Source: Candidatus Nomurabacteria bacterium | GTDB taxonomy: Bacteria; Patescibacteriota; Minisyncoccia; Phycocordibacterales; UBA9973 | Reading direction: 5' to 3' | Length of the DNA stretch: 64,000 nt | Assembly (NCBI GenBank): GCA_016699085.1 | Contig: CP064958.1 | Location: 271,630-335,629, forward strand | In this document: positions 23,352 to 43,325 of the stretch, one piece after another | How positions within the stretch are numbered: the first letter of the stretch is position 1 | Layout: each line of letters opens with the position of its first letter | The notes under the pieces: model-generated | Told to the model about the DNA's origin: nothing | Database searches by the model: none | What the model saw: the letters and a program-made list of their open reading frames with translations, nothing else | Position numbers and translations under genes: made by a program

Positions 23352-24449
23352 CTATCTATTCATGGGCATAATGAGATAACGAAATGTTGCATCTGACCCA
23401 CCTTTGAGTATTAATGGTTTATTTATTCCATTAAAATTAAGTGTAATACTATCAGCACTTATTGACTGGAAACAATCAATAATATACTTATAATTAAAAC
23501 TAATCGTTATAGGTTCTCCTTCTAGTGCCCCTTCAACCATAGTCTTATTTTCACCCACATCATTGTTTTTTGTTGCTAGGAAAAAAGCTTTTTGTACTGG
23601 ATCAATAGTAAAAGTAATCTGATTAAACTTATCAGAGAAAATATTTGCTATTTTCAAAGCCCTTATAAAATCTTCTTTCAAAACAACGACACTAGTTGTT
23701 GTTTCTTTGGGAATAATTTGTTTATAATCAGGAAAAATTGCATCAATAATACGTGAAGTAAGATATATTCCACCATATGCTATAGCTAGTTGGTTTTTAC
23801 TTGCAGTAATAGTTATATCATCATTTATTTCTTCAAAAATTCTTATTATTTCGATTATATTTTTATAAGGTATAAGAATGCCTGGAAATTCGGTATCATG
23901 GGAAATTTTTATTTTCTTTTCAGCAAGTCTAAAGGAATCAGTAGCCACAAAACTAAGTACGTCTGCGTCAGTATATATATAAATACTGGCAATTTCAGGT
24001 TTTATATCTGATATTGATGAACTATAATAAACTGATTTAATCCCTTCAATAAATTTCTTACACGAAATATGATGCTGTGCCCCCTCAACGATAGGTATTG
24101 TGGGAAAATCTTCATACGAGGCAGTCTTTATTCTAGAAAAATTATTTTTACTTGTACAGACTAAACTATCATTTTCAATAGTTAGGGTAATATTTTTTGT
24201 ATCCGTTATTGTCGCTAAAAACCGTGACAACACATCACCTTTAATTGCAACAACACCTTCTTTTTCAACTGTAGCTGGAATTTCAACCTCAATACCTAAA
24301 CTTAAATTAGTAGAACGTAATTTTATTGATTTTCCTGAAGCAATAAGTAATATACTTCCTAAGATAGGAAGTGATAAATTTTTCCCAGTAATTCTTTCTG
24401 CATATGTAATACCTCGTAATAATTTTTCAACTGAACATTCTAGTTTCAT
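23352..24449 (-). CDS. dnaN: DNA polymerase III beta subunit (sliding clamp)
   Basis: 365 aa immediately downstream of dnaA, with a clamp-like three-domain length and a MKLECSVEKL...PILGSILLIA N-terminus. Confidence 0.85.
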   Translation of the reverse strand: MKLECSVEKLLRGITYAERITGKNLSLPILGSILLIASGKSIKLRSTNLSLGIEVEIPATVEKEGVVAIKGDVLSRFLATITDTKNITLTIENDSLVCTSKNNFSRIKTASYEDFPTIPIVEGAQHHISCKKFIEGIKSVYYSSSISDIKPEIASIYIYTDADVLSFVATDSFRLAEKKIKISHDTEFPGILIPYKNIIEIIRIFEEINDDITITASKNQLAIAYGGIYLTSRIIDAIFPDYKQIIPKETTTSVVVLKEDFIRALKIANIFSDKFNQITFTIDPVQKAFFLATKNNDVGENKTMVEGALEGEPITISFNYKYIIDCFQSISADSITLNFNGINKPLILKGGSDATFRYLIMPMNR

Positions 24450-24659: not shown

Positions 24660-26009
24660 TTATTTGAACATACCGCGTATCTGTTCAAGTTCTTGGGATA
24701 AATTTGGGTTTCTTTTTAAATCCTCTTTAATTTTTAAAAATGAATGTATAACAGTTGTGTGATCTTTGCCACCAAGTTTCTGTCCTATGAGTGGATATGA
24801 AACATTAAAATCCTCACGGAGAATATACATAATCATTTGCCTCGCGTGCACGATCTCTTTGCGTCGGGTTTTTTCATATATAGAAGATTCATCAATATTA
24901 TAAAATGTGGAAATAATGTGTACTACTTCATCAATAGAAACATTTTTCTTTGGTTTGATATTATTTTTAATAAGACCTTTGACCTCACTCATTGAAATAT
25001 CCTTATTTTTCAACCTTGTTTGACAAATAATAGCATTTAAACTTCCCTCGAGTTCTCGGATACTGCCGCTTATAACTGCTGCTGTATATTCTAAAACCTC
25101 ATCAGAAATTTCAATTTTTTGTTCTTGCAGTTTTGTTCTGAGTATTGCTAACCTTGATTCATAATCAGGCTCAGTAATATCTACTATCATGCCAGCCGAG
25201 AATCTAGATTTTAATCGGTCTTCAAGACCGGGGATATAATTGGGATGTTTATCTGAAGAAAAAATTATTTGACGGTTACTTTCATAGAAAGTATTGAATG
25301 TATGAAATAATTCTTCTTGTGTTTTCTCCATTTTCCCTACAAATTGGATATCATCGATGATTAGCACATCGTATTTTCTATATTTTTCTTTAAAATTATT
25401 TGCTTTATTTGTTTGAAAAGAATTAATTAGGTCTGTTGCAAACTTTTCAAGGGTAATATAATGCACTTTTTTATCTGGATACTTTGTTTTAATAGCATTA
25501 CCCACACCTTGAATCAGATGTGTCTTTCCTAACCCGGTACCACCATAGATGAAAAATGGGTTATAACTAGCACCAGGCTTACTAACAATAGCTTGGGCCG
25601 CTGCAAATGCTAGTTCATTGAATGAGCCAACAATAAAGCTTTCAAATATATAACGTGGGTTTAAATTATCCTCTTTATTGATATATAAGTCTTGTAAAGG
25701 TAATTCTTTGTTGATAAAAGATTTCTGCTCGATACTAACTTCCTCTTTTGGTTTAATATCATAGCGAGTAATAGTATATTCTACAGCTCTTACATTCTCT
25801 GAATATTGCATCAAGGTCTTCAGTATCAGTTTGTGGTATTTATTACAAAGCCAATCTTTAACAAATTCATTTGGTACACCAATACAAGCGGTGCCATTTT
25901 CTTGACGAGTAATTGTCGTATTTTTAAACCATGTACTATAGTTTGCTCGCGAAACTGCTTGCTCTATATCGCCTAAACATTGTTCCCAAAGTTGTTTTGT
26001 ATCTTGCAT
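24660..26009 (-). CDS. dnaA: Chromosomal replication initiator protein DnaA
   Basis: AAA+ Walker A GGTGLGKTHLIQ, Walker B DDIQFV, a C-terminal DnaA-box binding domain, and a position divergent from rpmH. Confidence 0.95.
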   Translation of the reverse strand: MQDTKQLWEQCLGDIEQAVSRANYSTWFKNTTITRQENGTACIGVPNEFVKDWLCNKYHKLILKTLMQYSENVRAVEYTITRYDIKPKEEVSIEQKSFINKELPLQDLYINKEDNLNPRYIFESFIVGSFNELAFAAAQAIVSKPGASYNPFFIYGGTGLGKTHLIQGVGNAIKTKYPDKKVHYITLEKFATDLINSFQTNKANNFKEKYRKYDVLIIDDIQFVGKMEKTQEELFHTFNTFYESNRQIIFSSDKHPNYIPGLEDRLKSRFSAGMIVDITEPDYESRLAILRTKLQEQKIEISDEVLEYTAAVISGSIRELEGSLNAIICQTRLKNKDISMSEVKGLIKNNIKPKKNVSIDEVVHIISTFYNIDESSIYEKTRRKEIVHARQMIMYILREDFNVSYPLIGQKLGGKDHTTVIHSFLKIKEDLKRNPNLSQELEQIRGMFK

Positions 26010-26938: not shown

Positions 26939-27694
26939 ATGTTACTATTACTTTGGAATTTCATACTCTATAAACCCCTCCTTAATGCTTTGGTCTTTCT
27001 AACATCGATTGCTCCGGCGCACGATGTCGGTATTGCGGTCGTTCTCCTTACTATTGTCGTTAAATTGATACTTTTTCCTTTAACCAAGAAATCGATTATT
27101 AATCAGGCGAAAATGAAGAATATTGAGGGTGAAGTCGCAAAAATAAAGGCAGAAACCCCTGATAAGACAGAACAAGCTAAAAAAACCTTTGAATTGTATA
27201 AGGCAAATAAGGTCAATCCATTTTCGAGTTGTCTTGTTGTGCTTATCCAGTTCCCTATCATTATTGCGCTCTATCAGACATTCAAGAATGGACTAGATCA
27301 ATATCCAGAACTTCTCTACTCTTTTGTTCATTATCCTGAACACATACGGACATTTTTCCTTGGATTTATTGATATAACCAAACACAGCTTACTCTTAGCT
27401 ATTTTGGCTGGCGTAACACAGTTTATACAGGCTCACCTCTCGTTTTCATCAACTGCGCCAAGCGTCCCAGTAAGCAAGGATGCTTCGTTTAGTGCTCAAC
27501 TGGGGCAAAGCATGCAATTTCAAATAAAGTATCTCCTGCCGCCATTTATAGCCTTTATTGGCTATACCGTGTCAGCAGCTATCGTACTGTATTGGGTAAC
27601 TAGCAACATAGTAAGTATTATTCAGGAAGTTATCATTAGAAAAAAAGCTGGTTTATTAGACACCAAAGCACTTTTTAAGTTTAGAAATAAATGA
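26939..27694 (+). CDS. yidC: Membrane protein insertase YidC (short form)
   Basis: 251-aa, 5-TM YidC/Oxa1-like protein in the canonical rnpA-yidD-yidC-jag order. Confidence 0.75.
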   Translation: MLLLLWNFILYKPLLNALVFLTSIAPAHDVGIAVVLLTIVVKLILFPLTKKSIINQAKMKNIEGEVAKIKAETPDKTEQAKKTFELYKANKVNPFSSCLVVLIQFPIIIALYQTFKNGLDQYPELLYSFVHYPEHIRTFFLGFIDITKHSLLLAILAGVTQFIQAHLSFSSTAPSVPVSKDASFSAQLGQSMQFQIKYLLPPFIAFIGYTVSAAIVLYWVTSNIVSIIQEVIIRKKAGLLDTKALFKFRNK

Positions 27695-28296: not shown

Positions 28297-29706
28297 TTAG
28301 TTGAATTGATAGCTCCAAAGTGATCCATCGATTTTGTTGGTGAAATATATAAATTTTTCAGATGGATCAGTAAACAGTTTTGTCATGTCGATCGGGGATT
28401 GATTGATTGTGCTTGGATCGACAAGGTTGGCAAAGATGTTTGTTGTCAGGTTGATTCTCCAAAGTGAATCATCGAAAGCTACTTTGCCTTGGTACCATGC
28501 ATCGGGATATGTTTCGACTGGTAGAGCCTTAGGTATGCCGCAATATAGAACCTGGCTACCTATTCCCCAGGTACATTTTTCAGGTAATGTCGCTAGTCCA
28601 AGATTTGCTGATACGTGGGTTAATACATCATACGAATAGAGGGAGTAACTGCCTGCAATTGTTGCGCCGTAAATAAGTTTTTTTCCGTCAGGGCTCATGA
28701 GAGTGGTTACTCCAGGAACATTGCCAAGTATTTTTGTCATAGTGCCCGTTGTCGCATTGATAGAATACACATAGCCGCCAAGTATACCTGCTGGTTTTGT
28801 TGTTGCGACAATAGTTGAGCTATTTGCATATTGCATGAGCCACTCAGTAAATGCTGAATTCCAAAATTGTGATTTTTTAATACCTGCAAAATCCGTACTT
28901 ATCCCGAGTAGTCCCCCATCTGTTGGAAATGTATAGAATATTTTTGTGCCGTCACTTGATTTTGTCATTTCAGTAATATTTTCTGGCATAAAAGTGCCTT
29001 CAAGTGTATATGGTGTTGTGGCGAGTGGTACTTCCTTTATTTCAAGTAGCTCTTCTTCATTGGAGAGTGTATCGAGTGGAAGTTGGGCTATGAATGTTGC
29101 CATATAGGTCTTGATTTTGCCTGTCGCGTCATCAAGGTAGCGAAGAATAACAGAGGTGCCCGATGCGTCCCATATTGCCTCATGAATTCTCGGAATTGTT
29201 GTATTAGAAATCCTTTTTGTCTGTAAAGAATCGGTATACGTTTCGTAGGCATGTGCCGTCTTGGTTTCAATGTAGCGGATAGCTGTAGCTGGCACAGTGG
29301 TGATAATTGGAGGTGGAACGATCGACAGTGATCCAGGGATACCACCTGAATCGCCTTCAATTGCTGCTGGTGCGACAGGGGTCACAATGGTGCGTGTTGT
29401 TAGAAATGCAATTGCTCCTGCTACAGGTTCGGTTGTGATATGGCGAAGTTTAGGTAGTAGAGGCTCCTCGCCTATTGGTTGAGGTTCTCCAGGGACACTT
29501 CCTGGTGGCATAACGTCATTTGTTGGGGGTAGTGGCGTAGGGTTGTCATTCGTCTTTTGTCCAAATGGGAAAAGGTTTCGTAGTGTTATTTCGATATTGC
29601 TTGGATTTGGATTAGTGTCTGTTTTTTTTATAAAAAATCCAATAGCAATAAATGCAATGAGCAATATTCCCGTGATTAGTATTACTAATTTGAATTTTTT
29701 ATTCAT
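28297..29706 (-). CDS. Membrane-anchored protein with Pro-rich linker and beta-rich (propeller-like) ectodomain. Last gene of the T4SS-like cluster (VirB8-position)
   Basis: N-terminal TM LVILITGILLIAFIAIGFFI, a Pro-rich segment, then a ~350-aa beta-rich domain. The call is by position and topology only. Confidence 0.45.
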   Translation of the reverse strand: MNKKFKLVILITGILLIAFIAIGFFIKKTDTNPNPSNIEITLRNLFPFGQKTNDNPTPLPPTNDVMPPGSVPGEPQPIGEEPLLPKLRHITTEPVAGAIAFLTTRTIVTPVAPAAIEGDSGGIPGSLSIVPPPIITTVPATAIRYIETKTAHAYETYTDSLQTKRISNTTIPRIHEAIWDASGTSVILRYLDDATGKIKTYMATFIAQLPLDTLSNEEELLEIKEVPLATTPYTLEGTFMPENITEMTKSSDGTKIFYTFPTDGGLLGISTDFAGIKKSQFWNSAFTEWLMQYANSSTIVATTKPAGILGGYVYSINATTGTMTKILGNVPGVTTLMSPDGKKLIYGATIAGSYSLYSYDVLTHVSANLGLATLPEKCTWGIGSQVLYCGIPKALPVETYPDAWYQGKVAFDDSLWRINLTTNIFANLVDPSTINQSPIDMTKLFTDPSEKFIYFTNKIDGSLWSYQFN

Positions 29707-29715
29707 AGATATCTA

Positions 29716-31155
29716 TTAGCCGTTGGTGAGGCAAGATTGGTAAATACCATATGCATTTTGGCCATATGCACTCGGTGATGATGCACTGCACATACTGTTA
29801 CCACCATTGTAGGCTGAGAAAGTTTTTGCATAATCGCTTGTACATCCTGGGAGTCCATTGAAATATTTCCAGATTTTAGCACCTTCAGTCAAATTTTTTG
29901 TCATATCCAACATATCAGCTGGGGTAAAACCATCCCGTGTTGGGTAGGTATTCCTACTTTCCCATGATGGTGGATTCGTTGTGTATGTTCCAGAATCATA
30001 CCCAATTGGGAAAAACGTAACTTGTACGAGACCTATGCCATTACTAAATCTCCAATCAAGGCCGAGTCCAGGTGTGTTGGTAATCTCATTTTTGCTTACA
30101 TCATTTTTTTTATTTGGATCACTTGCACCATTAAAGGTTACTCCTTTGTATGTTTTACCTGAGTTTAGGAAAGCTTTGTTGGATTTTGTGCCTTTTACAT
30201 TTGCATCCATGCCTATTTGTCCCGCTTGCCCGCCTTTAGTTTCTACTTGCAAAAGTGTGTGTAATACACAATATGGAATGCCAGTGTTTGTGGCAACGGT
30301 ATGTGCTGCCGCATCAATAGCACCTGGAAGTGGTACAGCATTGCCAGTAATTGATTGGTAGACGGTATCTGGAATGATAATATCTTCGACGGCAATGCTT
30401 TGGGTACTAATCCCAAGGTGTAAGCGAACTAAGTTAGGATTGATGGTGTTAAGTATAAGAAATGCAGCAAGTGCAAGTAGTAGTCCTCCAATGGCATGTC
30501 CAATCATCCCCTTAGCATCTTCTTTTTTAGTAAATGACTCACTTCCCATGTAGGTAATACCGCCTAAGACTATCATAACTACAGCCAGTACTCCCGCAAA
30601 ACCTATAGTAAACTTAACCACAATATTAAGATAATCCCCTAGGCCTGTTGTAGGAGTGACTTTTACTATGTTTGGCAATGGTGCAAGTAGACAATATTCA
30701 CCAGCTCCCTCATTGCACTTTATTATTTCACCGTTTTGCGTTGGTGCTGCAGGCAAGTTAACATCTGCGTCCTGGCCACTCACTGCTCCTTTCGCAGTGT
30801 CTGGCGTTTTAAACTGCTTTAAGTCACTGACGGGTTCCTGGTTGCTAGCATTATATAATTCAAAGTAATAGGTTGTATTTGGTAGTACCCCATCAATTTT
30901 TCCGGTAAACGTATTGTCGCTCAACGGCGTAATAGTTTGCCCAGTTTTATCAAGTGACGAGGTACTGGTGCCGTACTTCACCTGCATAACTAGATTTTGA
31001 TATTCAAATACTTCCCCATTGAAACTAAAAGAAGTTGGAGTTGCTTCTGTAATGCTGTAGATGATTACTTGCTGGTCTGCATGGAGTAACCCATGAGGCA
31101 TGAGTATTGCAACAATGAGTGAAAAGAAGAATATAATTCGTTGTATTTTTTGCAT
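29716..31155 (-). CDS. Secreted FN3-like domain + VirB2/TrbC-like pilin TM hairpin + C-terminal SLT-like lytic transglycosylase (fusion)
   Basis: Signal peptide, then TTYYFELY (FN3-like). A two-helix hydrophobic hairpin FAGVLAVVMIVLGGITYMGSE...GHAIGGLLLALAAFLILNT follows. The C-terminus has LLQVETKGGQ...GIGLVQV...AYNGG, which resembles the SLT E-S/GLMQ/AYNxG motifs with Thr in place of Ser. Confidence 0.45.
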   Translation of the reverse strand: MQKIQRIIFFFSLIVAILMPHGLLHADQQVIIYSITEATPTSFSFNGEVFEYQNLVMQVKYGTSTSSLDKTGQTITPLSDNTFTGKIDGVLPNTTYYFELYNASNQEPVSDLKQFKTPDTAKGAVSGQDADVNLPAAPTQNGEIIKCNEGAGEYCLLAPLPNIVKVTPTTGLGDYLNIVVKFTIGFAGVLAVVMIVLGGITYMGSESFTKKEDAKGMIGHAIGGLLLALAAFLILNTINPNLVRLHLGISTQSIAVEDIIIPDTVYQSITGNAVPLPGAIDAAAHTVATNTGIPYCVLHTLLQVETKGGQAGQIGMDANVKGTKSNKAFLNSGKTYKGVTFNGASDPNKKNDVSKNEITNTPGLGLDWRFSNGIGLVQVTFFPIGYDSGTYTTNPPSWESRNTYPTRDGFTPADMLDMTKNLTEGAKIWKYFNGLPGCTSDYAKTFSAYNGGNSMCSASSPSAYGQNAYGIYQSCLTNG

Positions 31156-31156
31156 A

Positions 31157-32131
31157 TTATTCTAAATTAACGATTACTGACTTTTCTGCTGATTGAAAGA
31201 GTCGTGAAATACTTGCAATCGATACGGCAATCGATGCGCTTCCTGCAATACCTTCTGGTTTCTTGATGACAAGCCAATTCTTTTTGCTTGGTGTTGCTAT
31301 GTTCTGCTCATTTAATTTCCAGCTGTATTTTAGATCACTGCTTACTGGATCAAGTGGTGAAAAAAAGTATGGCTCTGCAACAATGGTCGCCTCGCTACTT
31401 TCTAGACTAAATATGTTGCCAAGCTCATGGCTGTACAATATCCCTTCGAGCGGATTATAAACATAAAAAAGAATCTGTGGTTTACCGGTTGTAAGTGTGA
31501 TACTCTGTGTTCCTGTTGCTCCGGAGCTTACGTCGGTTGCTTTGACACTTATCTGCTCTTTGGCATTTAGGTAGCTCGTTTGAAACAAAAAGCTATTTTT
31601 GCTATAGCCAGAAAAATCTGGGTATGCGTTAAAATTTCTTTGCCACGCAAATGTCATGCTCGTAGGACTTGCAATAGTGCCAGCTTTTACTTGTGGCATA
31701 GCAACAACTTTGATTACTGACTGGGATGATGGCATTGCTTTGCCTTTATAAAATGGTGGTACATGCGAATCAACGGCTTGCCAAAGAAGATCGATCGAGG
31801 ACGGGACTATCAGAACACTTTTTGTTATTGATGAGCCATCAACTGAAATGATTGCTTCAACGGTGACTGATGTTCCGACACTGTCAGTTTTTACTTGATA
31901 GCTTATTGCTCCCGTTTTATTGAGTCCAATTTTGCCATTTACCTTCCAAGTAATGTCTGCGCGGCTTAAATCAATAGCAAAACTAGTTAATTTTATGGTG
32001 ACAATTTGATCAGGCCCTGGAATTTCTGGTACTGTCGATACACTGACATCGCTTTGTACTAGTTCTGCGTGTGCGACCACAGTTAATCCGAAATATATCG
32101 AAATAATGAGGAGGATAAAAGCTTTTTTCAT
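31157..32131 (-). CDS. Secreted beta-rich protein of T4SS-like cluster
   Basis: Signal peptide MKKAFILLIISIYFGLTVVAHA. No motif recognised. Confidence 0.5.
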   Translation of the reverse strand: MKKAFILLIISIYFGLTVVAHAELVQSDVSVSTVPEIPGPDQIVTIKLTSFAIDLSRADITWKVNGKIGLNKTGAISYQVKTDSVGTSVTVEAIISVDGSSITKSVLIVPSSIDLLWQAVDSHVPPFYKGKAMPSSQSVIKVVAMPQVKAGTIASPTSMTFAWQRNFNAYPDFSGYSKNSFLFQTSYLNAKEQISVKATDVSSGATGTQSITLTTGKPQILFYVYNPLEGILYSHELGNIFSLESSEATIVAEPYFFSPLDPVSSDLKYSWKLNEQNIATPSKKNWLVIKKPEGIAGSASIAVSIASISRLFQSAEKSVIVNLE

Positions 32132-32197: not shown

Positions 32198-34033
32198 TTA
32201 CGCACTATCCTTTTCACTTGCTTCTAGTTCCTTTTTTGCTTTTTGTATGGCAAGGACTTGCGAAGGATCAGAGGTGATAATTTGATCTTCGGTATAGGAA
32301 GCAATCGTCTTAATCGCTACATGTTTGAGTCCTGCAAAGAATATGCCTTCACCGACACCGGATTCGAGGAGAAGATATTTCTCTTCGTCAGTAAGATTAA
32401 AGGTTTTTTGTAGTAAATCGATTGACGATGGGGACTGTTTCAGAAGAAATTGGATTGAAGAGTTCGTCACAATCGGTATACCATAGGGACTTTTCATGAA
32501 GTCTGCAACGTCTTGGGTAATTGTAGCAAGTCCTAGGTAGTACTTACGGCCACGTTTTGCAATCGAGTAGAGAAACGATGCTGTATCTTCTGATTTCATC
32601 ATCCACCAGGCTTCATCAACGACGAGGAGGCGTTTCCTTAAGTTTTTACGAACGGAGTTCCATATATAGTGGGTCACGATGTACATGGCAACAGGTTTAA
32701 GCTCGTCTTCCATGTCACGGACAGAAAAAACGACGAATTTTTTGTTGATATCTACATTTGATGGTTTGTTGATGAATCCTGCCCATGAACCGCGGGTATA
32801 CTTGGTAAGCTTTTGTATGATTGACTCAGTTCCCTCCATACCAGAGAGCACCATTTCAAAATCAGACATGAGCGGTGGCTCAATATTTGAGAAATCAGAA
32901 TTTGGAGTGATATCTTTGATGCCGTACGTTTCAGTAATCGCTCGATCAATAATAGAATCTTCTTCAGGTGTGAGGCCGCCTAGCATGATGCGGAATAGTC
33001 CGACTAAGTTGATCGTATTTGATCTGAGCACATCTGCTGCTGTCTCATCATCGTGTGGAATCGGTAAATCAAAAGGATTGATGTGGTGATCAGATGATAG
33101 TGAAATATTAAAGTATCGTCCTCCGACTGCTTCAGCCAGATATTCATACTCGCGCTCCGGATCAATAACGATTACTTCTGTATCAAACATGAGTGTACGG
33201 ATGATTTCGAGTTTGGTTGCATATGATTTACCTGAACCTGATTTGGCAAAGGTAATGGAGTTGTAGTTTTCGAGAGAGAAACGGTCAAAGATAACCAAGC
33301 TTGAATTGTGGCGGTTGATACCATAGAGAATACCTTTGTCTGAGGTCAAGTCAAAAGAAACAAAGGGGAAAATTGAAGATAGAGGCTCAGAATTAAGCTT
33401 CTGGTGTACATTGAGGAGGTCAGTGCCAATCGGTATAACACTCTTGAATCCTTCTTCTTGCTGGAAAAGTGCTGGTTTCAAATACACGAGCTTAGCATCG
33501 AGTATTGATTTGATTTCATTTTCAATTTTAAAAAGCTCATTTTCATTGTCGGCATACATAGTGAGGTACAGTCCAACATCAAACATTTTCTCCTGTGCTT
33601 GCTGTAGATTATCCCGGAGCGTTTCAATATCGCGATAGGCAGTATCGAGCATTGGGTCGCGCACCAAACCGCGCGATTCGCGCATATTGATCTGGCTCTG
33701 CACTTCTGCAACTTTCTTTTGAAATTGTCGCAAAATTGTCGCAGTATCAATCGGATGAATAAAGATTGAAACATCAAAAATCTTGTCGAGGTTGATAATC
33801 GGCGCAAACCAGTTGTCAGTCAAATACCTTGGATACGAAATCACGAAGAAAGTTCGGGCAATCTTATCTCCTAGATGTAGTGCTTTTGGCTCAACTTGTA
33901 GTGCTGATGGTGCAATAATATCCTGTAGCTCAAGTGTTGCGGCCTCGTATATTTCTTGTGGCAAAACAGGCAACACTTGCTTGTCGCTCCCGCTTCCCTT
34001 TTTTGATTTTCCTAAAAGTCCAAAAAGTGCCAT
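32198..34033 (-). CDS. virB4: VirB4/TrbE/CagE-family type IV secretion ATPase (C-terminal 611-aa portion)
   Basis: Walker A FAKSGSGKSYATK, then IDPEREY, a Walker B LLVVDEAWWMM (the DEAW signature) and GLATITQDVADF. The N-terminus contains the Gram-positive VirB4 NTD segment ARTFFVISYPRYL. Confidence 0.85.
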   Translation of the reverse strand: MALFGLLGKSKKGSGSDKQVLPVLPQEIYEAATLELQDIIAPSALQVEPKALHLGDKIARTFFVISYPRYLTDNWFAPIINLDKIFDVSIFIHPIDTATILRQFQKKVAEVQSQINMRESRGLVRDPMLDTAYRDIETLRDNLQQAQEKMFDVGLYLTMYADNENELFKIENEIKSILDAKLVYLKPALFQQEEGFKSVIPIGTDLLNVHQKLNSEPLSSIFPFVSFDLTSDKGILYGINRHNSSLVIFDRFSLENYNSITFAKSGSGKSYATKLEIIRTLMFDTEVIVIDPEREYEYLAEAVGGRYFNISLSSDHHINPFDLPIPHDDETAADVLRSNTINLVGLFRIMLGGLTPEEDSIIDRAITETYGIKDITPNSDFSNIEPPLMSDFEMVLSGMEGTESIIQKLTKYTRGSWAGFINKPSNVDINKKFVVFSVRDMEDELKPVAMYIVTHYIWNSVRKNLRKRLLVVDEAWWMMKSEDTASFLYSIAKRGRKYYLGLATITQDVADFMKSPYGIPIVTNSSIQFLLKQSPSSIDLLQKTFNLTDEEKYLLLESGVGEGIFFAGLKHVAIKTIASYTEDQIITSDPSQVLAIQKAKKELEASEKDSA

Positions 34034-34036
34034 ATA

Positions 34037-34705
34037 TTATTCTAGTTTAATATTTTGCTCTGTCTCGCCTGGATTAAATATCTTATAAAAAAGTTCAATA
34101 ATCTCTTCGGTTCCAAGTTGGGTGCTTCGAATACCACATCGGTTAAGCCCTTGTTGGATGACAGCAATGCGCTCTTCGAGTTGTGAACGTTTCTCTTCAA
34201 AAGCTGCCAATGCATCTTCTTTTGCTTCTTTTGATGATTTATTAAAGCCGGTGAACATTTGGGTAATGCCGCCAGTATTACCTATCGTAGTTGCTGAATA
34301 CGGGATAACGATAAAGAAGTTCTTTGTCATGATGTTTACCTGCTCAGTAAAGCTTTTGATGAATTCGATGTATTCTTTTGTCTGTACCTTAAGGAGTGGC
34401 TCTAACTGCTCCTTCATTCTGTTTTCAAGAGTTACAAGGTATGGCTGAATATTTAATCGTCGTGATTGGATAATAATCTGAGTTGAAAATTCAATCGAAT
34501 TCAAGAAATTTTGAAATTGCAGAAGAATCGCGTGCTGTTCATCAGCTGACTTGAGTGACAGATTGATTGATGAAGCTATAACAACAGCTCGTAAGCCGCC
34601 ATCTTTAAGTACGATGATGCCGTCGCGAACTTCTTTGATTGGCACAAACCCTTGGGTGGCCTTCGCATTGATTGCCATATGGGACAGTATACCATCCCCG
34701 CGCAT
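34037..34705 (-). CDS. VirB4 N-terminal domain encoded as a separate 222-aa ORF
   Basis: VPIKEVRDGIIVLKDGGLRAVVIASSINLSLKSADEQHAILLQFQNFL matches the N-terminal segment of Gram-positive VirB4/PrgJ-type proteins. The ORF stops 3 nt before the ATG of the 611-aa ORF, which lies in a different frame. Confidence 0.55.
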   Translation of the reverse strand: MRGDGILSHMAINAKATQGFVPIKEVRDGIIVLKDGGLRAVVIASSINLSLKSADEQHAILLQFQNFLNSIEFSTQIIIQSRRLNIQPYLVTLENRMKEQLEPLLKVQTKEYIEFIKSFTEQVNIMTKNFFIVIPYSATTIGNTGGITQMFTGFNKSSKEAKEDALAAFEEKRSQLEERIAVIQQGLNRCGIRSTQLGTEEIIELFYKIFNPGETEQNIKLE

Positions 34706-34713
34706 GGATATTG

Positions 34714-35163
34714 TTATTTTTTGTTGATATCAAGCACATCCAAGCTCCAAGAAATCTCTTTGAGCTTGCTGCCGGAGAGTCTTGGGATAACTGAGGTTGG
34801 CAATTCAGTGTCTTTTTTCTCGACAATTTTCTTTTTCGGTTCACGTTTCCAAATGTAGAGTTTTGACTGGAAAAAATATCGTAAACTATTTTCAAGTACG
34901 AATATAAATGGCTTATTATTCACCTTATAGAACGCAAGGGCGAGTGCTAGTCCGCCTATCGGTGCAATAAAAAGTACAGCAAAGAAAAATGGCAATAGCC
35001 TATACGCAATAAAGCAAAGTCCTGCCCCACCTGCGAGGTAGACGAATTGTCTGAAGGTAAATGGCCCGAATATCTTGTCTTCTATATCAATAAATTGTGG
35101 AACTTGGAATCGCATATAGGTATTATATAGCTTCTCGGTATAAATCTTTTTGTTTATCTGCAC
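34714..35163 (-). CDS. Small 2-TM membrane protein, VirB3/PrgI-like by position and topology
   Basis: IFGPFTFRQFVYLAGGAGLCFIAYRLLPFFFAVLFIAPIGGLALALAF. It lies immediately upstream of VirB4, as prgI/virB3 does. The start may be the internal Met (35115), which would avoid overlap. Confidence 0.4.
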   Translation of the reverse strand: MQINKKIYTEKLYNTYMRFQVPQFIDIEDKIFGPFTFRQFVYLAGGAGLCFIAYRLLPFFFAVLFIAPIGGLALALAFYKVNNKPFIFVLENSLRYFFQSKLYIWKREPKKKIVEKKDTELPTSVIPRLSGSKLKEISWSLDVLDINKK

Positions 35164-36013
35164 TACCTGTTACTTGAGGTAATGTGTAATTGCTTTCTTG
35201 CTTTGGAATCTTAAATGTCGTCTGTAATTTTTGAGCGACAACATTACCTTGAGGTGCTGGGACTGGTGTCGGGGTAGCTGTTGATGGTGCAGTAGATTCT
35301 GGTTGGTTTTTAGGCATGCCCACAAATTGCTGTGGCACTGGCATATCTTGGAGTTTTACTGTAGGCGGAATGATTTTTGGTGTTTGGATAGCACTAGCTA
35401 TACCTACATTAGCAGGCTTTTGTAGTGGATGAGGCATCGATGTGTCGTTTCTGATTGGATTCTCGAGTGACTTTATAAGTGCATCTCGAGTCAATGCTTG
35501 AGCGTCGGTAGTATCTAATGCGTCACTAATAGCGGTCTCTCTCGGTTTGATGAGTTCAATCTTTGCGTCTTTTAGAATATTTGTGGTGTTTTTCTCTTGA
35601 GTTGGGCTATCAAGATCAACAGAAATTATTTCTTTAGGAATTACATCTTGTTGTATAGTTTCAACTACTTCTTCATCCTCAATTGGTCTATTTAATTCTT
35701 CGATCTCCTGCATCTTTTGACGAACTGGAGCAAATATTTTTTCATTGAGATCACTAATCAAAAGCGGTGTTTGGATAACAGAAAGTCCCATTTCTTGCGT
35801 GATCTCTTGTGAGAATTCTTGAGGATTAAGAAGACCTATAAATACAAGTGGAATCAAGCCATCAAGTATTCCAATTTTATCTATATGAAGATTATATTTC
35901 TTCCCTAATTCTTGAGTAATTTGATCAATTTTTATGCGAGAAGTAGCTTGCATAAGTTCAGTTGGTGCATTCTCGAAAGCTTTTTTGATTTCTTCTGGTG
36001 AAATATTTTTCAT
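35123..36013 (-). CDS. Bitopic membrane protein with Pro-rich C-terminal region (T4SS-like cluster)
   Basis: Cytoplasmic N-domain, one TM (IGILDGLIPLVFIGLL) and a P/Q/T-rich extracytoplasmic tail. Confidence 0.45.
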   Translation of the reverse strand: MKNISPEEIKKAFENAPTELMQATSRIKIDQITQELGKKYNLHIDKIGILDGLIPLVFIGLLNPQEFSQEITQEMGLSVIQTPLLISDLNEKIFAPVRQKMQEIEELNRPIEDEEVVETIQQDVIPKEIISVDLDSPTQEKNTTNILKDAKIELIKPRETAISDALDTTDAQALTRDALIKSLENPIRNDTSMPHPLQKPANVGIASAIQTPKIIPPTVKLQDMPVPQQFVGMPKNQPESTAPSTATPTPVPAPQGNVVAQKLQTTFKIPKQESNYTLPQVTGSADKQKDLYREAI

Positions 36014-36020
36014 TGTTCTA

Positions 36021-39000
36021 TTAGCTATTTAGTTTATCATTAGCGTCCCTTGTTTTTTGCTCAACAGTATCTTTTTTAGCAAATACTTCTTTATACATTT
36101 TAATATCTTCCTTTGCCTTCTCTATATTCATGTGGGCCTTAGCAATCTCAATTGGATTTTTTGAAGCTTCAGCTATGGTTAGATTTGCCTGTGCGGTTGC
36201 AAGGTCTTTTTGCCTGTACTCAACTACTTGTTTAATATGACTTTCATCTACTACTGGAGGACGAACACCTGTTTCAAATTCAATATTATCAGCAATGTCT
36301 TTCAAATGATCATTAACTTCTGCCATTTCTCGAGCGGCCTTATCAAGTGTTTGTTGTGCACGTCGTCTCTCTGTAATACTAATTGGTTTCTGTGCGTCCT
36401 TTGTTTCTTCGCCAGCTTGTTTACGCAATGAGGATATCGTTGCTTTCTCAGTTGCATTTAAGTTACGTTTTGAAATTGTTTCAGCTTCTCTCCACTTTTC
36501 TTCACTAAATGCTGCTGTTCGACTTCCAGCTGCTACACCAGCTGCTATTTCTTCGGCAACTTGCTGTTCGTTTGCAGTTCTAGCAGCATTTTTAGCACTG
36601 ACATAGCCTGGTCCATATTCGATAGTATCTGCAGAATCACGCATGCGCTGAGCATTAACTTCTGCGGCTGATTGTACTTTTGCGCCACCACCATTTCCGT
36701 TGTGGGTAATATTGCCATCTTTGTCATAAATAGTTGCCATCTGTTTTTCATATAATTTTTTGAAATCTGCTTCCTTAAATTTATCACCCAGTGCAGCTCG
36801 AGCATTTTCTTTGTCTGTCTCATATCTTTCTTGCCAATCTTTTGCTTTTTTATTTTGCTGGTCAGCTTCATACCCTGACATCTTGTAAGTTTCTGCTTCT
36901 TTCATGCGAGCGTCCTTCTTGCGTTCAGTAGCACCTTTTGCTCCACCTTCAGTAGATAGATCAATTCTGCCAGTGCCAAGTGTTAAATTAGCTGCGCCCT
37001 GAGCAAATCCGCCAAGGCCAGATGAAGCTTTGGTATCCCAGCCAGTTTGTTTCGCAAAACCTTCGCCAGCTTTTGTCTTTCTGAAATCAAAACTACTTGC
37101 TGCCATTGAATTTGAAATTGTAAGTTGTCGTTGTGCCCACTTATCCCCTTCAGCCGCACGTCGTTGTAGATCAGGATCTTTTGCCCTTGCGGCTGCGACT
37201 GCTCCGAGTGTTGATCGTAGTCCAAGTGCTGCTCCACCTGTTGCAACGCCAACCGCGGCGCCGCCAACTTTGTTCATAACTGCAAGCGATGCTGCCCCAA
37301 TGTCACCAGAAAGTTTGACTGCCATATCAACCGCTGTTTTTATCAAGAAATATATAATCGCAAACGGTATGATGAGGCCGATAAGTCCTTGGATATTACT
37401 TTCGAGACTGCCGCCAGTTGGACTGTTACTTGCTGCGATTGGTAGTAGCTTAAGATCAGTCGCCATAATGATGATATAAAGGAAAAAGAGGAATATTGGT
37501 GCCATAAATGCCTGAGATACTAGTTCGTGCCACCAGTTTGTCCAACCAATTTTCATCCAACCTTTCATCGACGGCACGATCCATGATACGAACGCAAACG
37601 GAGATAGTATCATTGAAACCATCAGCCCTATGACACGGCCGAGAAACAGTACAGCAACCTTGAGAAACATGAGGAACATAAATATATTGATTGCAATAGC
37701 AATGAGTAGCACAAAGAAGAACCAGCCAGTGTTTGCGTTTGCGTCGATATCGCTTGTTTTGAATATTTTCTGTGGATTAAATTTAGAAACAAGTCCAAGG
37801 GTTATACTCTTCTCGCCACCCACTGAAGAGCTTTGTCCGGTCACATTTACTGAGTCGTACATGATCCGAGCGAGGATATTTGACGTGTCGATAATAATTT
37901 TGGTAAAAAATAAGCTGAAGTTGATAAGGAGCGCCACAACGACGAGCGAGGCGATCATTTTCTTGGCATCGACACCACTGATTCGTAGAATAGTGCCGAT
38001 AGCAATATAGAGCAGTACGAATATGAAAAGAATATTTGAAATATCACGAACAATGCGCCAGCCTTGAGGTACGAATTCTGTAGCGGTGTAACTTGAGCTT
38101 TGTAGGGAGAAATGTAAGAACCAATCAAGGAATCCAGCAGCAAGTCTCGCAAGTGCAGCTGTTGGAATGTATAAGACGTAATACACCAGCTGAGTAAAAC
38201 ACCCGAGCATGTTGATTGCTGCCCTGCCTGATGTCAGACTGAAATCTAGACAGTATGGCAAATTACCAGGATTGCCTGTGTCCGTTGAGCCTTCGACTAT
38301 GTTTTGGCCCCCTGTTGGACTTGTTGTTACCTCAGGAGAGCCAGCTGGCAGAGTTTTGAAGGGCGCAATTTTTTCCTCATCATCACTAAGGGCGCTCAAG
38401 GTGTCATTACTAAGCTCACCAATACAATTACGAATTAGCGGGATAACTGAACAAGTCTCCTCAAGTCTCCCTTGACTTACATATTGGGTATCTGGCTTTA
38501 AACCCGTAACAGTAATGTTGATTGTTTGAGTGCCAAGAAAAATGTCTGGAATAACGACAATGCTCTGTCCAATATTTTGATCGAAAGTAATTCCTGGAAT
38601 GGGCTTTCCTGCACGGTCTAGAATTTTACCATTGATAACTTCTTCGTCGGAGAGGGTCGCTGCTTCCTTTTTGGCCATAGTACCCAGATTGTCCTCATTT
38701 GTAGCAATATCTAAATAGACACCGCAGCCATACCCATTACATTCGAGTGGATCATAGGATCCTAGTGCCCCACCATTGCCTGGGATTTCTTCATTGCCTT
38801 GAGACGAATTGGATTGTCCAGAAAGTACTTCGTAAATAGGATTACCGTCTTGCCCTTCGATGTATGTCCATCCAGTAATTCCATTGGTGCTTCCATTAGG
38901 AGGAATTCTTCCTTTATAAATATCATGACCAATATTGCCGTCATTACCGCCATTAACTTGTAACTGGAATTGAAGTACAGCTGTTGTTGCTCCGACGCTT

Positions 39001-39128
39001 ATCACCTTAACTTCAGGTATATTAAAATTATCATCCAAATAAGCTTCGGCTTTTTGCGGAGTAAATATTGGCAAAAAGCTTCCTGATAGGATAGTGATGA
39101 AGAGCACATAGAGCAGGAATTTTTTCAT
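36021..39128 (-). CDS. Giant polytopic membrane protein, VirB6/TrbL-like core, with ~350-aa ectodomain and ~450-aa charged coiled-coil cytoplasmic tail
   Basis: Signal peptide, large N-terminal ectodomain, at least 7 hydrophobic helices (residues ~330-620), then a K/E/A/Q-rich low-complexity C-terminus. Confidence 0.5.
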   Translation of the reverse strand: MKKFLLYVLFITILSGSFLPIFTPQKAEAYLDDNFNIPEVKVISVGATTAVLQFQLQVNGGNDGNIGHDIYKGRIPPNGSTNGITGWTYIEGQDGNPIYEVLSGQSNSSQGNEEIPGNGGALGSYDPLECNGYGCGVYLDIATNEDNLGTMAKKEAATLSDEEVINGKILDRAGKPIPGITFDQNIGQSIVVIPDIFLGTQTINITVTGLKPDTQYVSQGRLEETCSVIPLIRNCIGELSNDTLSALSDDEEKIAPFKTLPAGSPEVTTSPTGGQNIVEGSTDTGNPGNLPYCLDFSLTSGRAAINMLGCFTQLVYYVLYIPTAALARLAAGFLDWFLHFSLQSSSYTATEFVPQGWRIVRDISNILFIFVLLYIAIGTILRISGVDAKKMIASLVVVALLINFSLFFTKIIIDTSNILARIMYDSVNVTGQSSSVGGEKSITLGLVSKFNPQKIFKTSDIDANANTGWFFFVLLIAIAINIFMFLMFLKVAVLFLGRVIGLMVSMILSPFAFVSWIVPSMKGWMKIGWTNWWHELVSQAFMAPIFLFFLYIIIMATDLKLLPIAASNSPTGGSLESNIQGLIGLIIPFAIIYFLIKTAVDMAVKLSGDIGAASLAVMNKVGGAAVGVATGGAALGLRSTLGAVAAARAKDPDLQRRAAEGDKWAQRQLTISNSMAASSFDFRKTKAGEGFAKQTGWDTKASSGLGGFAQGAANLTLGTGRIDLSTEGGAKGATERKKDARMKEAETYKMSGYEADQQNKKAKDWQERYETDKENARAALGDKFKEADFKKLYEKQMATIYDKDGNITHNGNGGGAKVQSAAEVNAQRMRDSADTIEYGPGYVSAKNAARTANEQQVAEEIAAGVAAGSRTAAFSEEKWREAETISKRNLNATEKATISSLRKQAGEETKDAQKPISITERRRAQQTLDKAAREMAEVNDHLKDIADNIEFETGVRPPVVDESHIKQVVEYRQKDLATAQANLTIAEASKNPIEIAKAHMNIEKAKEDIKMYKEVFAKKDTVEQKTRDANDKLNS

Positions 39129-39262: not shown

Positions 39263-41515
39263 TTAGTAATTCTGTGGGAGATAATCACTGATTGAGCTCC
39301 TGTAGAATTTACTACACTCCATTTTAAACGGCTCATTATTGTAGCCTTTCGTATAGGTATATCCTCCTCCCTCACCTGCGTGATAGACAAATGGTATCTC
39401 TGAGAAAATCCATTGCCAGCCTGGTTCAACGAGTGGATCGGCGTCATGATTTGCATCAGTTCCGCAGAAAAGTAGTTGCACGGCATCTTTGCCGACCGCT
39501 TCTCTTGCAATTGGGTCTGTGCTATTTTTTTCGTTTAGGCAAGCCTGCTGGAGAGATGGTTCACTAATGGTAGTTCCGGGCGTATAGTTTGCAGGATCAG
39601 ATGAGCATTTTTTATATAATGCATTAATATCTTCGCCACTTACTTTAAACGCGTAGGATAGATCAGCAACATAGCCGTTACATTCATTTTGGGCATCACT
39701 AATCGTATCACTGCGGCTAATTTTATCTTTTAAAACTACATATTGTCCTGCAAGTTGGTTTTTATACTGAGCAACACTTGCAGAATCAGGGCTACCATCA
39801 GAAGGTTTTGGGTGTGCGGCTATGCCTGCAACGATGCTCTTTAATAATGCAAGGGATCGTACTTTATCAGAAATTCTATTCTGTAGATTACTTTGGTCTT
39901 GGTTGTACTCCTCGACTTTTTTGACTTGATCAACAATTGCTGCTGCAGAAGTAATATTCTTGATAAGGATATTAGTCTGGAAATTAGCGAGAATATATGA
40001 CATTGCATTATTCAAATATTTTATCTGGTCCTGAGCTTGCTCTCCATTATTTGTATTATTATCTGATTTTGATTCCAGTTTTCTTGATTCAGTGGTAAAT
40101 TCTGACTGCATTCTGGATGCGTATTTGTAGTCTGGTCCAGGTAAACATTGGTCAAGCTGCATTGTTCTTAATGGAAATGTTTTTAATAGATCGCGACTTG
40201 CAGTTAGAATCGTAAGCTCTGTTTGGGTTTTATTTATTGCATCAAGTAATTCTGGGGATGGTGTTCCAGGAGCTGTCCCTTCGAGAGGTACTGCATCAGC
40301 GACATTCCAGCTAAATGTTCCATTTGTGTCTGACACAAATGCACTGTTATCTCCCGGGCCTTCGACGGTTTCATCACCGCTTCCGGTTGCAATGCTGCCA
40401 ATCAGTTGACTCAAGCCTTTACTAATAAGCCCTGCAGCTAAATTTGAAACAGCATCGACGACTGGACTGCCACTTGCAGAGTCAAGGAGGGCTTTTTCAA
40501 GTGGTGCAGTGACAGATTGGTTGAGCTGATCAGCAACAAGTTTGCCTGGAGTTACAGTTTCATACCTTGCGCAGTCATCGCTAGCATCAAATTGGATACT
40601 GCTTCCGAGGCTGAGGCTTAAGCTGTTCAAATAATCATCTGCATTCGTGCCGCTGCTCGTACATTCACTGGTTGCGTTTGTATTGTTTGCAGAATCAGAC
40701 TGGCATTCGGTCTTGGTAGTAAACGGGCCGACAGTGTATGTTTGTAGATTGTCATTCACTGCTGTGTATGTCCAATCTGTTGCTGTAATTGCATTTTGAC
40801 CACTTGAGCCATCTTTGTATTCAACACATTTTTTTGCTGACAGGAATCCTCCACTTTGATTGAGTTCATTTTGGATTGTGCCCTGTGCCTCTTTTGCCCG
40901 ATTCTCTAATTCCTCAGCAGTTCGTAAATATGAACCAACGGGATTATTTGCGTCATTTTGAGTAAATGCCATCCAACCATCCCATCCTCCTACAGCAAAA
41001 TCGCCGTCAGTAAAGTCTTGCCAGTTGGGGCCGATTACTTTATCTAAGGTAAATTTTGATTTATCTGCAAACACACTCGAATTTGTTGTCAAATACGAGG
41101 TAATGAGGTTTTTAGCAACCCCTTGGGAATACGGGAACTTTGTTATATCCCCTGTAATTTCATTAACAAAGGATTCAACTTTCTGGTCTGCTATGCTTTT
41201 AAAAAAACTTGATTGATCACGGACAAAAAAAGGATTGCCATTAAATCCAGTTGATCCCCAGTTGATGATTTGCTGGGTCATGTTGAGTGCAACCTGAGAA
41301 CTTATACGCTTGAGAGATTTTTGGAGCAAGGTACCAGCTAAAGTTTTGCCGGCACTCGCAGCTGATTGGGAGCCAAAAATAGTCTGTATAATTTGTTGGG
41401 GCAAATTCGGCAAATCTACAACTGGCAATCCTGCGTGAGCTGGCTTAATTTGTACCGCCAATAATAAGAAAAGACTAAGAAAAGAAATAATACTATACTG
41501 ATAGCGCTTTTTCAT
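39263..41515 (-). CDS. Large secreted protein (750 aa) of T4SS-like cluster, Cys-containing
   Basis: Signal peptide MKKRYQYSIISFLSLFLLLAVQIKPAHA, with multiple Cys pairs. No motif recognised. It could be an adhesin or VirB5-like tip protein. Confidence 0.5.
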   Translation of the reverse strand: MKKRYQYSIISFLSLFLLLAVQIKPAHAGLPVVDLPNLPQQIIQTIFGSQSAASAGKTLAGTLLQKSLKRISSQVALNMTQQIINWGSTGFNGNPFFVRDQSSFFKSIADQKVESFVNEITGDITKFPYSQGVAKNLITSYLTTNSSVFADKSKFTLDKVIGPNWQDFTDGDFAVGGWDGWMAFTQNDANNPVGSYLRTAEELENRAKEAQGTIQNELNQSGGFLSAKKCVEYKDGSSGQNAITATDWTYTAVNDNLQTYTVGPFTTKTECQSDSANNTNATSECTSSGTNADDYLNSLSLSLGSSIQFDASDDCARYETVTPGKLVADQLNQSVTAPLEKALLDSASGSPVVDAVSNLAAGLISKGLSQLIGSIATGSGDETVEGPGDNSAFVSDTNGTFSWNVADAVPLEGTAPGTPSPELLDAINKTQTELTILTASRDLLKTFPLRTMQLDQCLPGPDYKYASRMQSEFTTESRKLESKSDNNTNNGEQAQDQIKYLNNAMSYILANFQTNILIKNITSAAAIVDQVKKVEEYNQDQSNLQNRISDKVRSLALLKSIVAGIAAHPKPSDGSPDSASVAQYKNQLAGQYVVLKDKISRSDTISDAQNECNGYVADLSYAFKVSGEDINALYKKCSSDPANYTPGTTISEPSLQQACLNEKNSTDPIAREAVGKDAVQLLFCGTDANHDADPLVEPGWQWIFSEIPFVYHAGEGGGYTYTKGYNNEPFKMECSKFYRSSISDYLPQNY

Positions 41516-42502: not shown

Positions 42503-43324
42503 TTAGATTTCTTTTTCTAAAGAGTTTTGCAGTAGCTTTTTTGCAATAATAAACCAGGTTTCTAAATCTATGTCCTCTGCCCGTATTTGTTCTGGTAAAT
42601 CTCCGGCTTGCCAAATATTGGTCAGTGCATCATATGGCATAGGCAATGATGTAAGATTTCTGATGAGTACTTTGCGTTTATGGGCAAATCCTGTGCGAAC
42701 AACATTGAAAAAATGTTTTTCCGATACAGCATACTTTGTAAAAAGATTTTTTGAGATTTTCTCAATTGAAAGTATGGCTGAGTCGACGCGAGGCGGTGGT
42801 GTAAAACTACCGCGTCCTACCTTGGCTATGATCTTTGGGTTACCGTAGGCTTTGACTGCGATTGAGAGAATGCTTTCCTTGTTGTCTTTAGCGATAATCC
42901 TTTCGGCGACTTCTTTTTGCACCAAAAGAACCATCTGTTCTGGTATACAAGGAGCGCTCAAGATATGCTTCAATATTGCGCCAGTGATATTGTATGGGAT
43001 ATTGGCAATGACTTTGTAGGTAAGATCATGATAAAAAGCAAATACACCTGGGTCAAAATCAAGAATGTCTTTTTCAATAAGCTCAAGTTTACCGTCTGCT
43101 ATTTCTTTTGCAAATGTAGCCGAAAGTTCTTCGACTAGTGTACGATCTTTTTCAATCGCAACCACTTTGCCAGCAAAAAAAAGTAATTTTTTGGTAAGCA
43201 CACCGTGCCCTGGTCCAATTTCAAGAATAATATCAGTCGGCTGTATATCCCCACTCTCTATAATAGTGTCGAGTGCGTGTTGGTTATGGAGAAAGTGTTG
43301 TCCTAAAGATTTTTTAGCAAGCAT
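42503..43324 (-). CDS. rsmA: 16S rRNA (adenine1518/1519-N6)-dimethyltransferase RsmA/KsgA
   Basis: KKSLGQHFLHNQ, SAM-binding ILEIGPGHGVLT, ANIPYNITGAIL. The true start is the internal ATG at 43322-43324. The longer ORF to 43630 overlaps the helicase. Confidence 0.85.
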   Translation of the reverse strand: MLAKKSLGQHFLHNQHALDTIIESGDIQPTDIILEIGPGHGVLTKKLLFFAGKVVAIEKDRTLVEELSATFAKEIADGKLELIEKDILDFDPGVFAFYHDLTYKVIANIPYNITGAILKHILSAPCIPEQMVLLVQKEVAERIIAKDNKESILSIAVKAYGNPKIIAKVGRGSFTPPPRVDSAILSIEKISKNLFTKYAVSEKHFFNVVRTGFAHKRKVLIRNLTSLPMPYDALTNIWQAGDLPEQIRAEDIDLETWFIIAKKLLQNSLEKEI

Positions 43325-43325
43325 G

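Follow-up and report, generated by a model that had tools for sequence, protein, structure and literature searches.

A chromosomal type IV secretion system (T4SS) cluster is found in a 64,000-nucleotide stretch of the genome of a Candidatus (Ca.) Nomurabacteria bacterium (GenBank assembly GCA_016699085.1, contig CP064958.1, positions 271,630 to 335,629), hereafter called the window and numbered from its first letter. The VirB4 ATPase of this cluster is encoded on the minus strand by two adjacent open reading frames (ORFs), here named the N-half and the C-half. Very probably, this arrangement is a genuine, evolutionarily conserved two-gene VirB4, in which a TrsD-like gene is followed by the ATPase gene. 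The ORFs, motifs, and signals concerned are as follows.

34037..34705, minus strand: N-half ORF, 222 aa, the longest ORF, from ATG 34705, stop codon included
34037..34678, minus strand: probable extent of the N-half gene, 213 aa, starting at the second Met (ATG 34678), stop codon included
34686..34691, minus strand: TATACT, a −10-like box ending 7 nt before ATG 34678; consensus match only
34037..34039, minus strand: N-half stop codon TAA, with T as the next letter (UAAU context)
34034..34036, minus strand: 3-nt spacer TAT, in frame with both ORFs
32198..34033, minus strand: C-half ORF, 611 aa, beginning at ATG 34033-34031
33224..33247, minus strand: Walker A motif, AKSGSGKS, C-half residues 263-270, intact
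32612..32629, minus strand: Walker B motif, LLVVDE, C-half residues 469-474, intact

Junction and conservation of the two genes

The minus-strand letters at the junction are ...AAA CTA GAA TAA TAT ATG GCA CTT..., and translation of 34132..33941 (minus strand) in a single frame gives ...NIKLE*YMALFGLLGK.... Positions 34705 and 34033 are both 1 modulo 3, and the N-half and the C-half thus share one frame. They do not overlap, and only the in-frame TAA and one codon (TAT) lie between them. The initial annotation of this stretch had located the stop, the start, the ORFs (222 + 611 = 833 aa combined), and the 3-nt spacing correctly, and the N-terminal sequence that it quoted is present, but its placement of the two ORFs in different frames was wrong. 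Because of the shared frame, joining the two ORFs by a frameshift or a 1-nt indel is impossible; the 1-nt indel that was envisaged there as restoring a single 833-aa frame has nothing to restore, since the halves are already in frame. Three 611-aa proteins with ~100% identity (P0001–P0003) come from NCBI, JGI, and Logan assemblies, indicating that the junction is not peculiar to the one assembly.

Loci were taken from 80 distinct species-level genomes, of which 78 were analyzable for the junction. VirB4 was split in all 78, with the break at the identical protein position. The spacer between the halves ranged from 1 to 497 nt (median 11.5) and was ≤10 nt in half of the relatives. The relative frames 0, 1, and 2 occurred in 23, 31, and 24 junctions, and the stop codon of the N-half was TAA in 62, TAG in 13, and TGA in 3 genomes. 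The junction sequences were not conserved over the 78 species, and both ORFs were intact throughout, with identities of 53–74% for the N-half and 77–93% for the C-half. The same breakpoint, combined with a variable spacer, frame, and stop codon, points to two long-separated cistrons under purifying selection. In practically all close relatives, the N-half and the C-half form separate cistrons. A genuine split, one of the possibilities raised in the initial annotation, is therefore borne out by the ortholog comparison, while a frameshift pseudogene, a programmed frameshift, and a sequencing or assembly indel are excluded by the single frame and the conserved split.

Database searches gave the same picture. 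When a conceptual fusion of the two ORFs was used as the query, ~118 of the 120 best matches were C-half proteins alone (~589–682 aa, 83–100% identity) and one more was a 541-aa fragment; the best matches were labeled Nomurabacteria, Paceibacteria, or Minisyncoccia. The best 120 matches of the N-half were all standalone proteins of 211–235 aa. When 1.84 billion cluster representatives were scanned exhaustively, 2211 clusters proved to be related to the N-half at E ≤ 1e-3, and the best 150 of these 2211 representatives (50%-identity clusters) comprised 149 short proteins and 1 fused protein.

Two kinds of independent rearrangement were observed at the split loci. In four species, a gene of PF05635 (23S rRNA-intervening-sequence family, four-helix bundle; ~125–133 aa) is inserted exactly between the halves and shares their strand. 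Pfam checks were made on two of these insertions (E 1.8e-19 and 3.5e-40).

L028:2975-3419; L046:5504-6000; L065:1498-1978; L074:4315-4756: PF05635 insertions

In L022 (4858-5923, DALYDA010000004.1), the N-half gene and its PrgI-like (VirB3-like) neighbor are intact, and this ~1.1-kb block is inverted relative to the rest of the T4SS cluster. The N-half and ATPase genes are divergent there, and their starts are only ~60–77 nt apart. The inversion could be real or an assembly artifact of the metagenome-assembled genome.

The two gene products and their fused counterparts

The C-half is a VirB4-type T4SS ATPase, TrsE-like and of the CD1110 family, and its identity to P0001, a protein of a Ca. Nomurabacteria bacterium, is 100%. 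It scored 380.4 bits against NCBIfam NF045971 (CD1110 family; cutoff 325) over positions 183–734 of 752, covered positions 288–892 of 894 in NF045975 (VirB4_plasma), and matched Pfam PF19044 (86.3 bits; cutoff 25.8), PF12846, and PF01935. Gly266, Gly268, Lys269, and Ser270 of Walker A and Asp473 and Glu474 of Walker B are invariant in an alignment of C-halves (A1). The C-half does not amount to a full-length single-chain VirB4, and the first ~180 profile positions are instead located on the 222-aa ORF. The N-half covers positions 9–123 of 752 in NF045971 and 102–285 of 894 in NF045975 (E 4e-13), and in the latter profile the two halves tile a single VirB4 without overlap (102–285, then 288–892). 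The C-half thus carries the remainder of the VirB4 N-terminal domain and the Walker A/B ATPase domain.

The N-half is TrsD-like and represents, as a protein of its own, the first subdomain of the VirB4 N-terminal domain, corresponding to approximately the first 200 residues of that domain. It matched the NCBIfam TrsD/TraD model NF041427 (30.1 bits, E 3.8e-7) at profile positions 20–142 of 201, and it fits the positional description of TrsD/TraD, a standalone protein of ~200–230 aa encoded between the VirB3-like and VirB4 ATPase genes. No model in the local Pfam copy matched the N-half, and PF26593 ("TraC-like") is the precomputed annotation of P0271, which is 99% identical to the N-half, and of all 120 N-half homologs listed. 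An AlphaFold2 (AF2) model of the N-half alone had a predicted local distance difference test (pLDDT) score of 76.4. In a Foldseek search of the Protein Data Bank (PDB) with this model, ranks 1–14 were all R388 TrwK/VirB4 (E 7e-4 to 2e-2; query-based template modeling [TM] score 0.39–0.50), and the first other match had an E value of 0.13. The model is accordingly similar in structure to R388 TrwK, most likely to its VirB4 N-terminal domain. The designation "TrsD-like" was chosen because position, size, and fold agree with TrsD but the score does not reach the NCBIfam curated level; it denotes a remote homolog with the same gene-order role and not a member of the staphylococcal TrsD subfamily. 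The initial description of the pieces as the N-terminal and ATPase parts of VirB4 is supported by the Pfam, NCBIfam, and structure matches. It listed the genuine split among its possibilities and recognized neither the named family (TrsD/TraD; PF26593) nor the known arrangement in Patescibacteria and in pGO1/pSK41-type plasmids.

Translation of the N-half probably starts at the second Met (ATG 34678), giving a protein of 213 aa, since its homologs begin at this position, P0271 differs from the N-half upstream of it, and the TATACT box precedes it.

VirB4 proteins in which the two parts are joined were also considered. P0004 (846 aa, 70% identity), the only close relative that seemed to be fused, was taken as a natural fusion and rejected, because its DNA has an in-frame TGA at the junction. 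At its locus (L082:2060-4600; ENA ERZ1758444 NODE_230), the sequence reads …AAT TGA ttc…aat ATG GGA…, with the TGA translated as Trp, and translation table 11 leaves the locus split, the in-frame spacer being 24 nt long. The P0004 fusion is a gene-calling artifact of the code-4 style. Genuine single-chain VirB4 proteins were found in more than 110 clusters (775–807 aa) labeled Ca. Colwellbacteria or Parcubacteria. The fused form was verified under table 11 in L083, where its context (PrgI ... rpmH-dnaA-dnaN) is as in the split loci.

An AF2 model of the fused protein P0208 (pLDDT 70.6) contains a folded N-module at residues ~5–207 and a second module starting near residue 239. The pLDDT value falls to 53–59 at residues 211–230, which is the breakpoint of the split forms. 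The model superposes on full-length R388 TrwK/VirB4 with a TM score of 0.64 in both directions (E 2.6e-24). As judged from this predicted structure, the VirB4 breakpoint lies where two folded modules are connected by a linker of low confidence. The split C-halves (window 33920-34033; A1 columns 1–40) share an N-terminal peptide of ~25–35 aa, MxxFDxLLGKKK…VLPVLPxEIYE, which is missing from the shorter linker of the genuinely fused Colwellbacteria proteins (residues 209–235 of P0208). Speculatively, the N-half could dock onto this conserved peptide.

In a neighbor-joining tree of the N-modules, the fused forms constitute one clade placed nine nodes deep among the split forms. The tree is a rough, midpoint-rooted one without support values; TrsD of pSK41 was unusable as an outgroup, with just 82 profile positions aligned. 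This topology suggests that the fused VirB4 of Colwellbacteria arose by secondary re-fusion. An alignment of P0004 with the separate halves (A3) was dropped because MAFFT stretched the short N-halves over the long reference, and alignments of the fused forms only (A4) and of the N-half only (A5) were used instead.

Expression, assembly, and alternative explanations

Here, we propose how the two genes may be expressed and how their products may work together. No Shine–Dalgarno sequence was found upstream of the C-half in this genome or in the relatives, and Shine–Dalgarno-driven initiation of the C-half is not proposed for this reason. A Shine–Dalgarno-like match was absent in 39 of the 44 window genes examined, indicating that the genome is nearly devoid of such sequences. 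Given this and the 3-nt spacer, the most plausible route for translation of the ATPase gene at the UAA-UAU-AUG junction would be termination–reinitiation coupling. A TATAAT/TATACT-like box ends ~6–14 nt before many starts in the window (e.g., 34686-34691 and upstream of 41515, 42483, 32131, and 63025), which suggests leaderless or very-short-leader mRNAs. At the loci with spacers longer than 10 nt, such a −10-like box is found 4–20 nt before the ATG of the C-half in 15 of 39 cases, versus 7.9% at random positions. In the long-spacer species, the ATPase gene may therefore be transcribed from its own promoter, with a very short leader. As to the products, the N-half and C-half polypeptides would associate noncovalently at the membrane and so reconstitute a working VirB4 protomer, and the PrgI/VirB3-like protein would probably join this complex. 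The proposal follows from the reported behavior of VirB4 N-terminal domains, which form dimers, insert into the membrane, and touch both VirB3 and VirB8 (review, PMC12857230).

It is improbable, though the least so of the alternatives, that the N-half is an independent accessory TrsD, derived from VirB4 but acting outside the ATPase, and that the 611-aa protein acts alone as an N-terminally short VirB4. The faster evolution of the N-half, as seen in the lower identities among the 78 genomes (53–74% versus 77–93%), and the occurrence of halves separated by another gene or lying on opposite strands would be compatible with such independence. However, the halves tile the VirB4 profiles exactly, with neither overlap nor duplication, and they are adjacent in 77 of the 78 analyzable species. 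The natural single-chain versions in a related lineage fold like full-length TrwK. In addition, the searched text of a recent study of Patescibacteria (PMC12102498; Microb Genom 2025) states, from its reference 37, that T4SS components including TrsD are essential in Ca. Southlakia epibionticum, which speaks against such independence.

Programmed readthrough or recoding of the in-frame UAA, yielding a fused VirB4 of ~835 aa, is highly improbable. Such a product is conceivable at this junction, where the ORFs are in frame and UAA-UAU is the sole separation, and the halves likewise share a frame in the P0004 locus, where a TGA stop and the 24-nt spacer separate them. Nevertheless, the in-frame junctions (23 of 78) are as frequent as chance predicts, each of the three stop codons occurs, and the spacers of relatives hold further stops and even whole genes. 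The in-frame state of the window junction is thus most likely a coincidence, a one-in-three chance outcome. UAA followed by U is the strongest termination context in bacteria, and this also counts against readthrough. The C-half retains its conserved initiator Met and the N-terminal peptide (MxxFDxLLGKK), and no suppressor tRNA was found in the window, where tRNA-Lys was the only tRNA detected. A reassignment according to code 4 or 25 was considered for the window and ruled out, as the stop codon is TAA, here and in 62 of the 78 relatives. Features of a programmed frameshift are absent: the ORFs neither overlap nor differ in frame, and the junction sequence is not conserved. A recent nonsense mutation creating a pseudogene, or a stop introduced by a sequencing or assembly error, has a practically negligible probability. 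Nothing speaks for it except that a stop is present within a reading frame of VirB4 length. All 78 species have the break at one and the same position, and the independent NCBI, JGI, and Logan assemblies give identical 611-aa products. Both halves are intact and conserved, including Walker A and B, and there is no frameshift to repair.

Several points weigh against a conserved two-gene VirB4 with a TrsD-like first gene. The AF2 models are of moderate confidence (pLDDT 70.6 and 76.4). The 30.1 bits of the N-half on NF041427 are far under the curated cutoff of 200. The Foldseek matches came without residue ranges, and the correspondence of the N-half to the N-terminal part of TrwK is drawn from the profile tiling and from the superposition of the fused relative. 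The hhalign probability of the match to TrsD is 70.5%, and the link to the staphylococcal prototype consists of remote homology and synteny. TrsD homologs of Gracilibacteria are not beside virB4 according to the searched text of PMC12102498, and the partnership may not be universal. Physical reassembly and translational coupling, for their part, are deduced from sequence.

In this lineage, the two-gene VirB4 is the usual state and has been published before; it is not a new discovery. The additions made here are the equivalence of the breakpoint to that between TrsD and TrsE of pSK41, the probably secondary re-fusion in Colwellbacteria, and the exposure of P0004 as a translation-table artifact. 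For annotation, a ~610-aa VirB4 of Patescibacteria that follows a ~215-aa "hypothetical" ORF should not be flagged as frameshifted or truncated, and the small ORF deserves the name TrsD-like VirB4 N-terminal module. Caution is also due with public protein sets, as P0004 is "full-length" only through a TGA read as Trp. The T4SS is among the few systems that these bacteria reportedly cannot do without in their epibiotic lifestyle, and any structural or genetic study of it should consider that its motor is built of two polypeptides.

Genomic neighborhood and comparison with known systems

The genes around the two VirB4 ORFs are listed below.

34714..35163, minus strand: PrgI-family (VirB3-like) gene, 149 aa, directly upstream of the N-half; Pfam PF12666, E 2e-10
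23352-24449: dnaN, beside the T4SS cluster
24660-26009: dnaA, beside the T4SS cluster
26939-27694: yidC, beside the T4SS cluster
42503-43630: ksgA, after the T4SS cluster

The T4SS cluster thus adjoins the probable replication origin, a location that has been published for Paceibacteria. PrgI-like genes hold the same place in L082, L083, and L022, and TrsC does so in pSK41. The longest PrgI-like ORF of the window (GTG 35163) overlaps an upstream 296-aa ORF (35123-36013) by 41 nt, and comparison with L022 (…MQFKVPQFIDVEDKIFGP) suggests that the gene really begins at an internal Met (MRFQVPQF), near 35115. Within the T4SS cluster, the ORFs 36021-39128, 39263-41515, 28297-29706, and 31157-32131 (1035, 750, 469, and 324 aa) had no Pfam match, and the sole match of the 479-aa ORF 29716-31155, to T4SS_pilin, was weak (E 0.0047). 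An ORF located upstream in the Colwellbacteria locus L083 (509 residues called, reaching the locus end at position 1) weakly matches TrbL_3 (VirB6-like); given this match, one of the large ORFs of the window cluster may be the VirB6 equivalent. Neither a relaxase nor a coupling protein was identified among the neighboring ORFs scanned.

The T4SS of Patescibacteria described in the searched text of PMC12102498 has the same components (VirB4, a TrsD homolog, PrgI/VirB3, and a pilin-like protein) and the same neighborhood as the window, and nothing substantive differs. That text counts 2,272 TrsD homologs in Patescibacteria, 1,664 of them near virB4, with TrsD defined by the CONJScan/MacSyFinder MPF_FATA TrsD profile, and calls TrsD the most abundant T4SS component in this group. 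The cluster is typically located near dnaA, dnaN, rnpA, rpmH, and ksgA. TrsD is treated there as a separate component remotely homologous to the VirB4 N terminus, a likeness for which PMC12102498 is our only source; the name TrsD does not occur in the main text of Guglielmini et al. 2014 (PMC4027160). The searched text of PMC12102498 contains no discussion of where exactly the break lies, of the fused form of Colwellbacteria, or of the anatomy of the junction, and a literature search for the phrase "split VirB4" returned no papers.

The gene order of the window, PrgI/VirB3-like, N-half, and ATPase, is that of TrsC-TrsD-TrsE in the staphylococcal plasmids of the pSK41/pGO1 type. This system is the pGO1 subclass of the MPF_FATA T4SS, in which the corresponding pIP501 names are TraD and TraE. 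The sizes are comparable: TrsC (VirB3 position), TrsD, and TrsE (DUF87/VirB4) of pSK41 have 135, 227, and 672 aa, and their window counterparts have 149, 222, and 611 aa. The spacer is 14 nt between trsD and trsE and 3 nt in the window. In hhalign comparisons, TrsD aligned with the N-half profile (A2) at a probability of 70.5% (E 3.9e-5; 172 columns; residues 20–208 versus 39–217 of 227), and TrsE aligned with the C-half at 99.3% (E 5e-20). The TrsD alignment extends over almost the whole of both proteins and is supportive without being strong. Residue 212 of the N-half faces residue 217 of TrsD, and residue 38 of the C-half faces residue 36 of TrsE, indicating that the breakpoint is equivalent in pSK41 and the window. 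The similarity is nonetheless remote, with ~19% identity between the N-half and TrsD by hhalign and 24% for the ATPase. The window locus is chromosomal, beside replication origin genes, in Patescibacteria, whereas pSK41 and pGO1 are conjugative plasmids.

The equivalent breakpoint in the profile alignments and the nested fused clade in the neighbor-joining tree would allow a reading by shared descent. Tentatively, and with the odds against it, the breakpoint might be a rare genomic change shared by descent with the pGO1/pSK41 (TrsD-TrsE) subclass of conjugation systems in monoderms, the donor to the candidate phyla radiation being pGO1/pIP501-like and already split, with re-fusion in Colwellbacteria. 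Independent splits at a permissive linker are a possible alternative to shared descent.

Single-chain VirB4 proteins are known from several systems, including R388 TrwK (PDB ID: 7O41 and 8RTD), CD1110, the Mbov_0397-family ATPases of integrative and conjugative elements, and the Colwellbacteria proteins P0208 and P0395. In profile positions and fold, they correspond to both window halves together. Walker A and B and the VirB3/PrgI-like upstream neighbor are common to them and the window. Unlike in these single-chain proteins, the first ~200 residues of the window VirB4 are a separate polypeptide.

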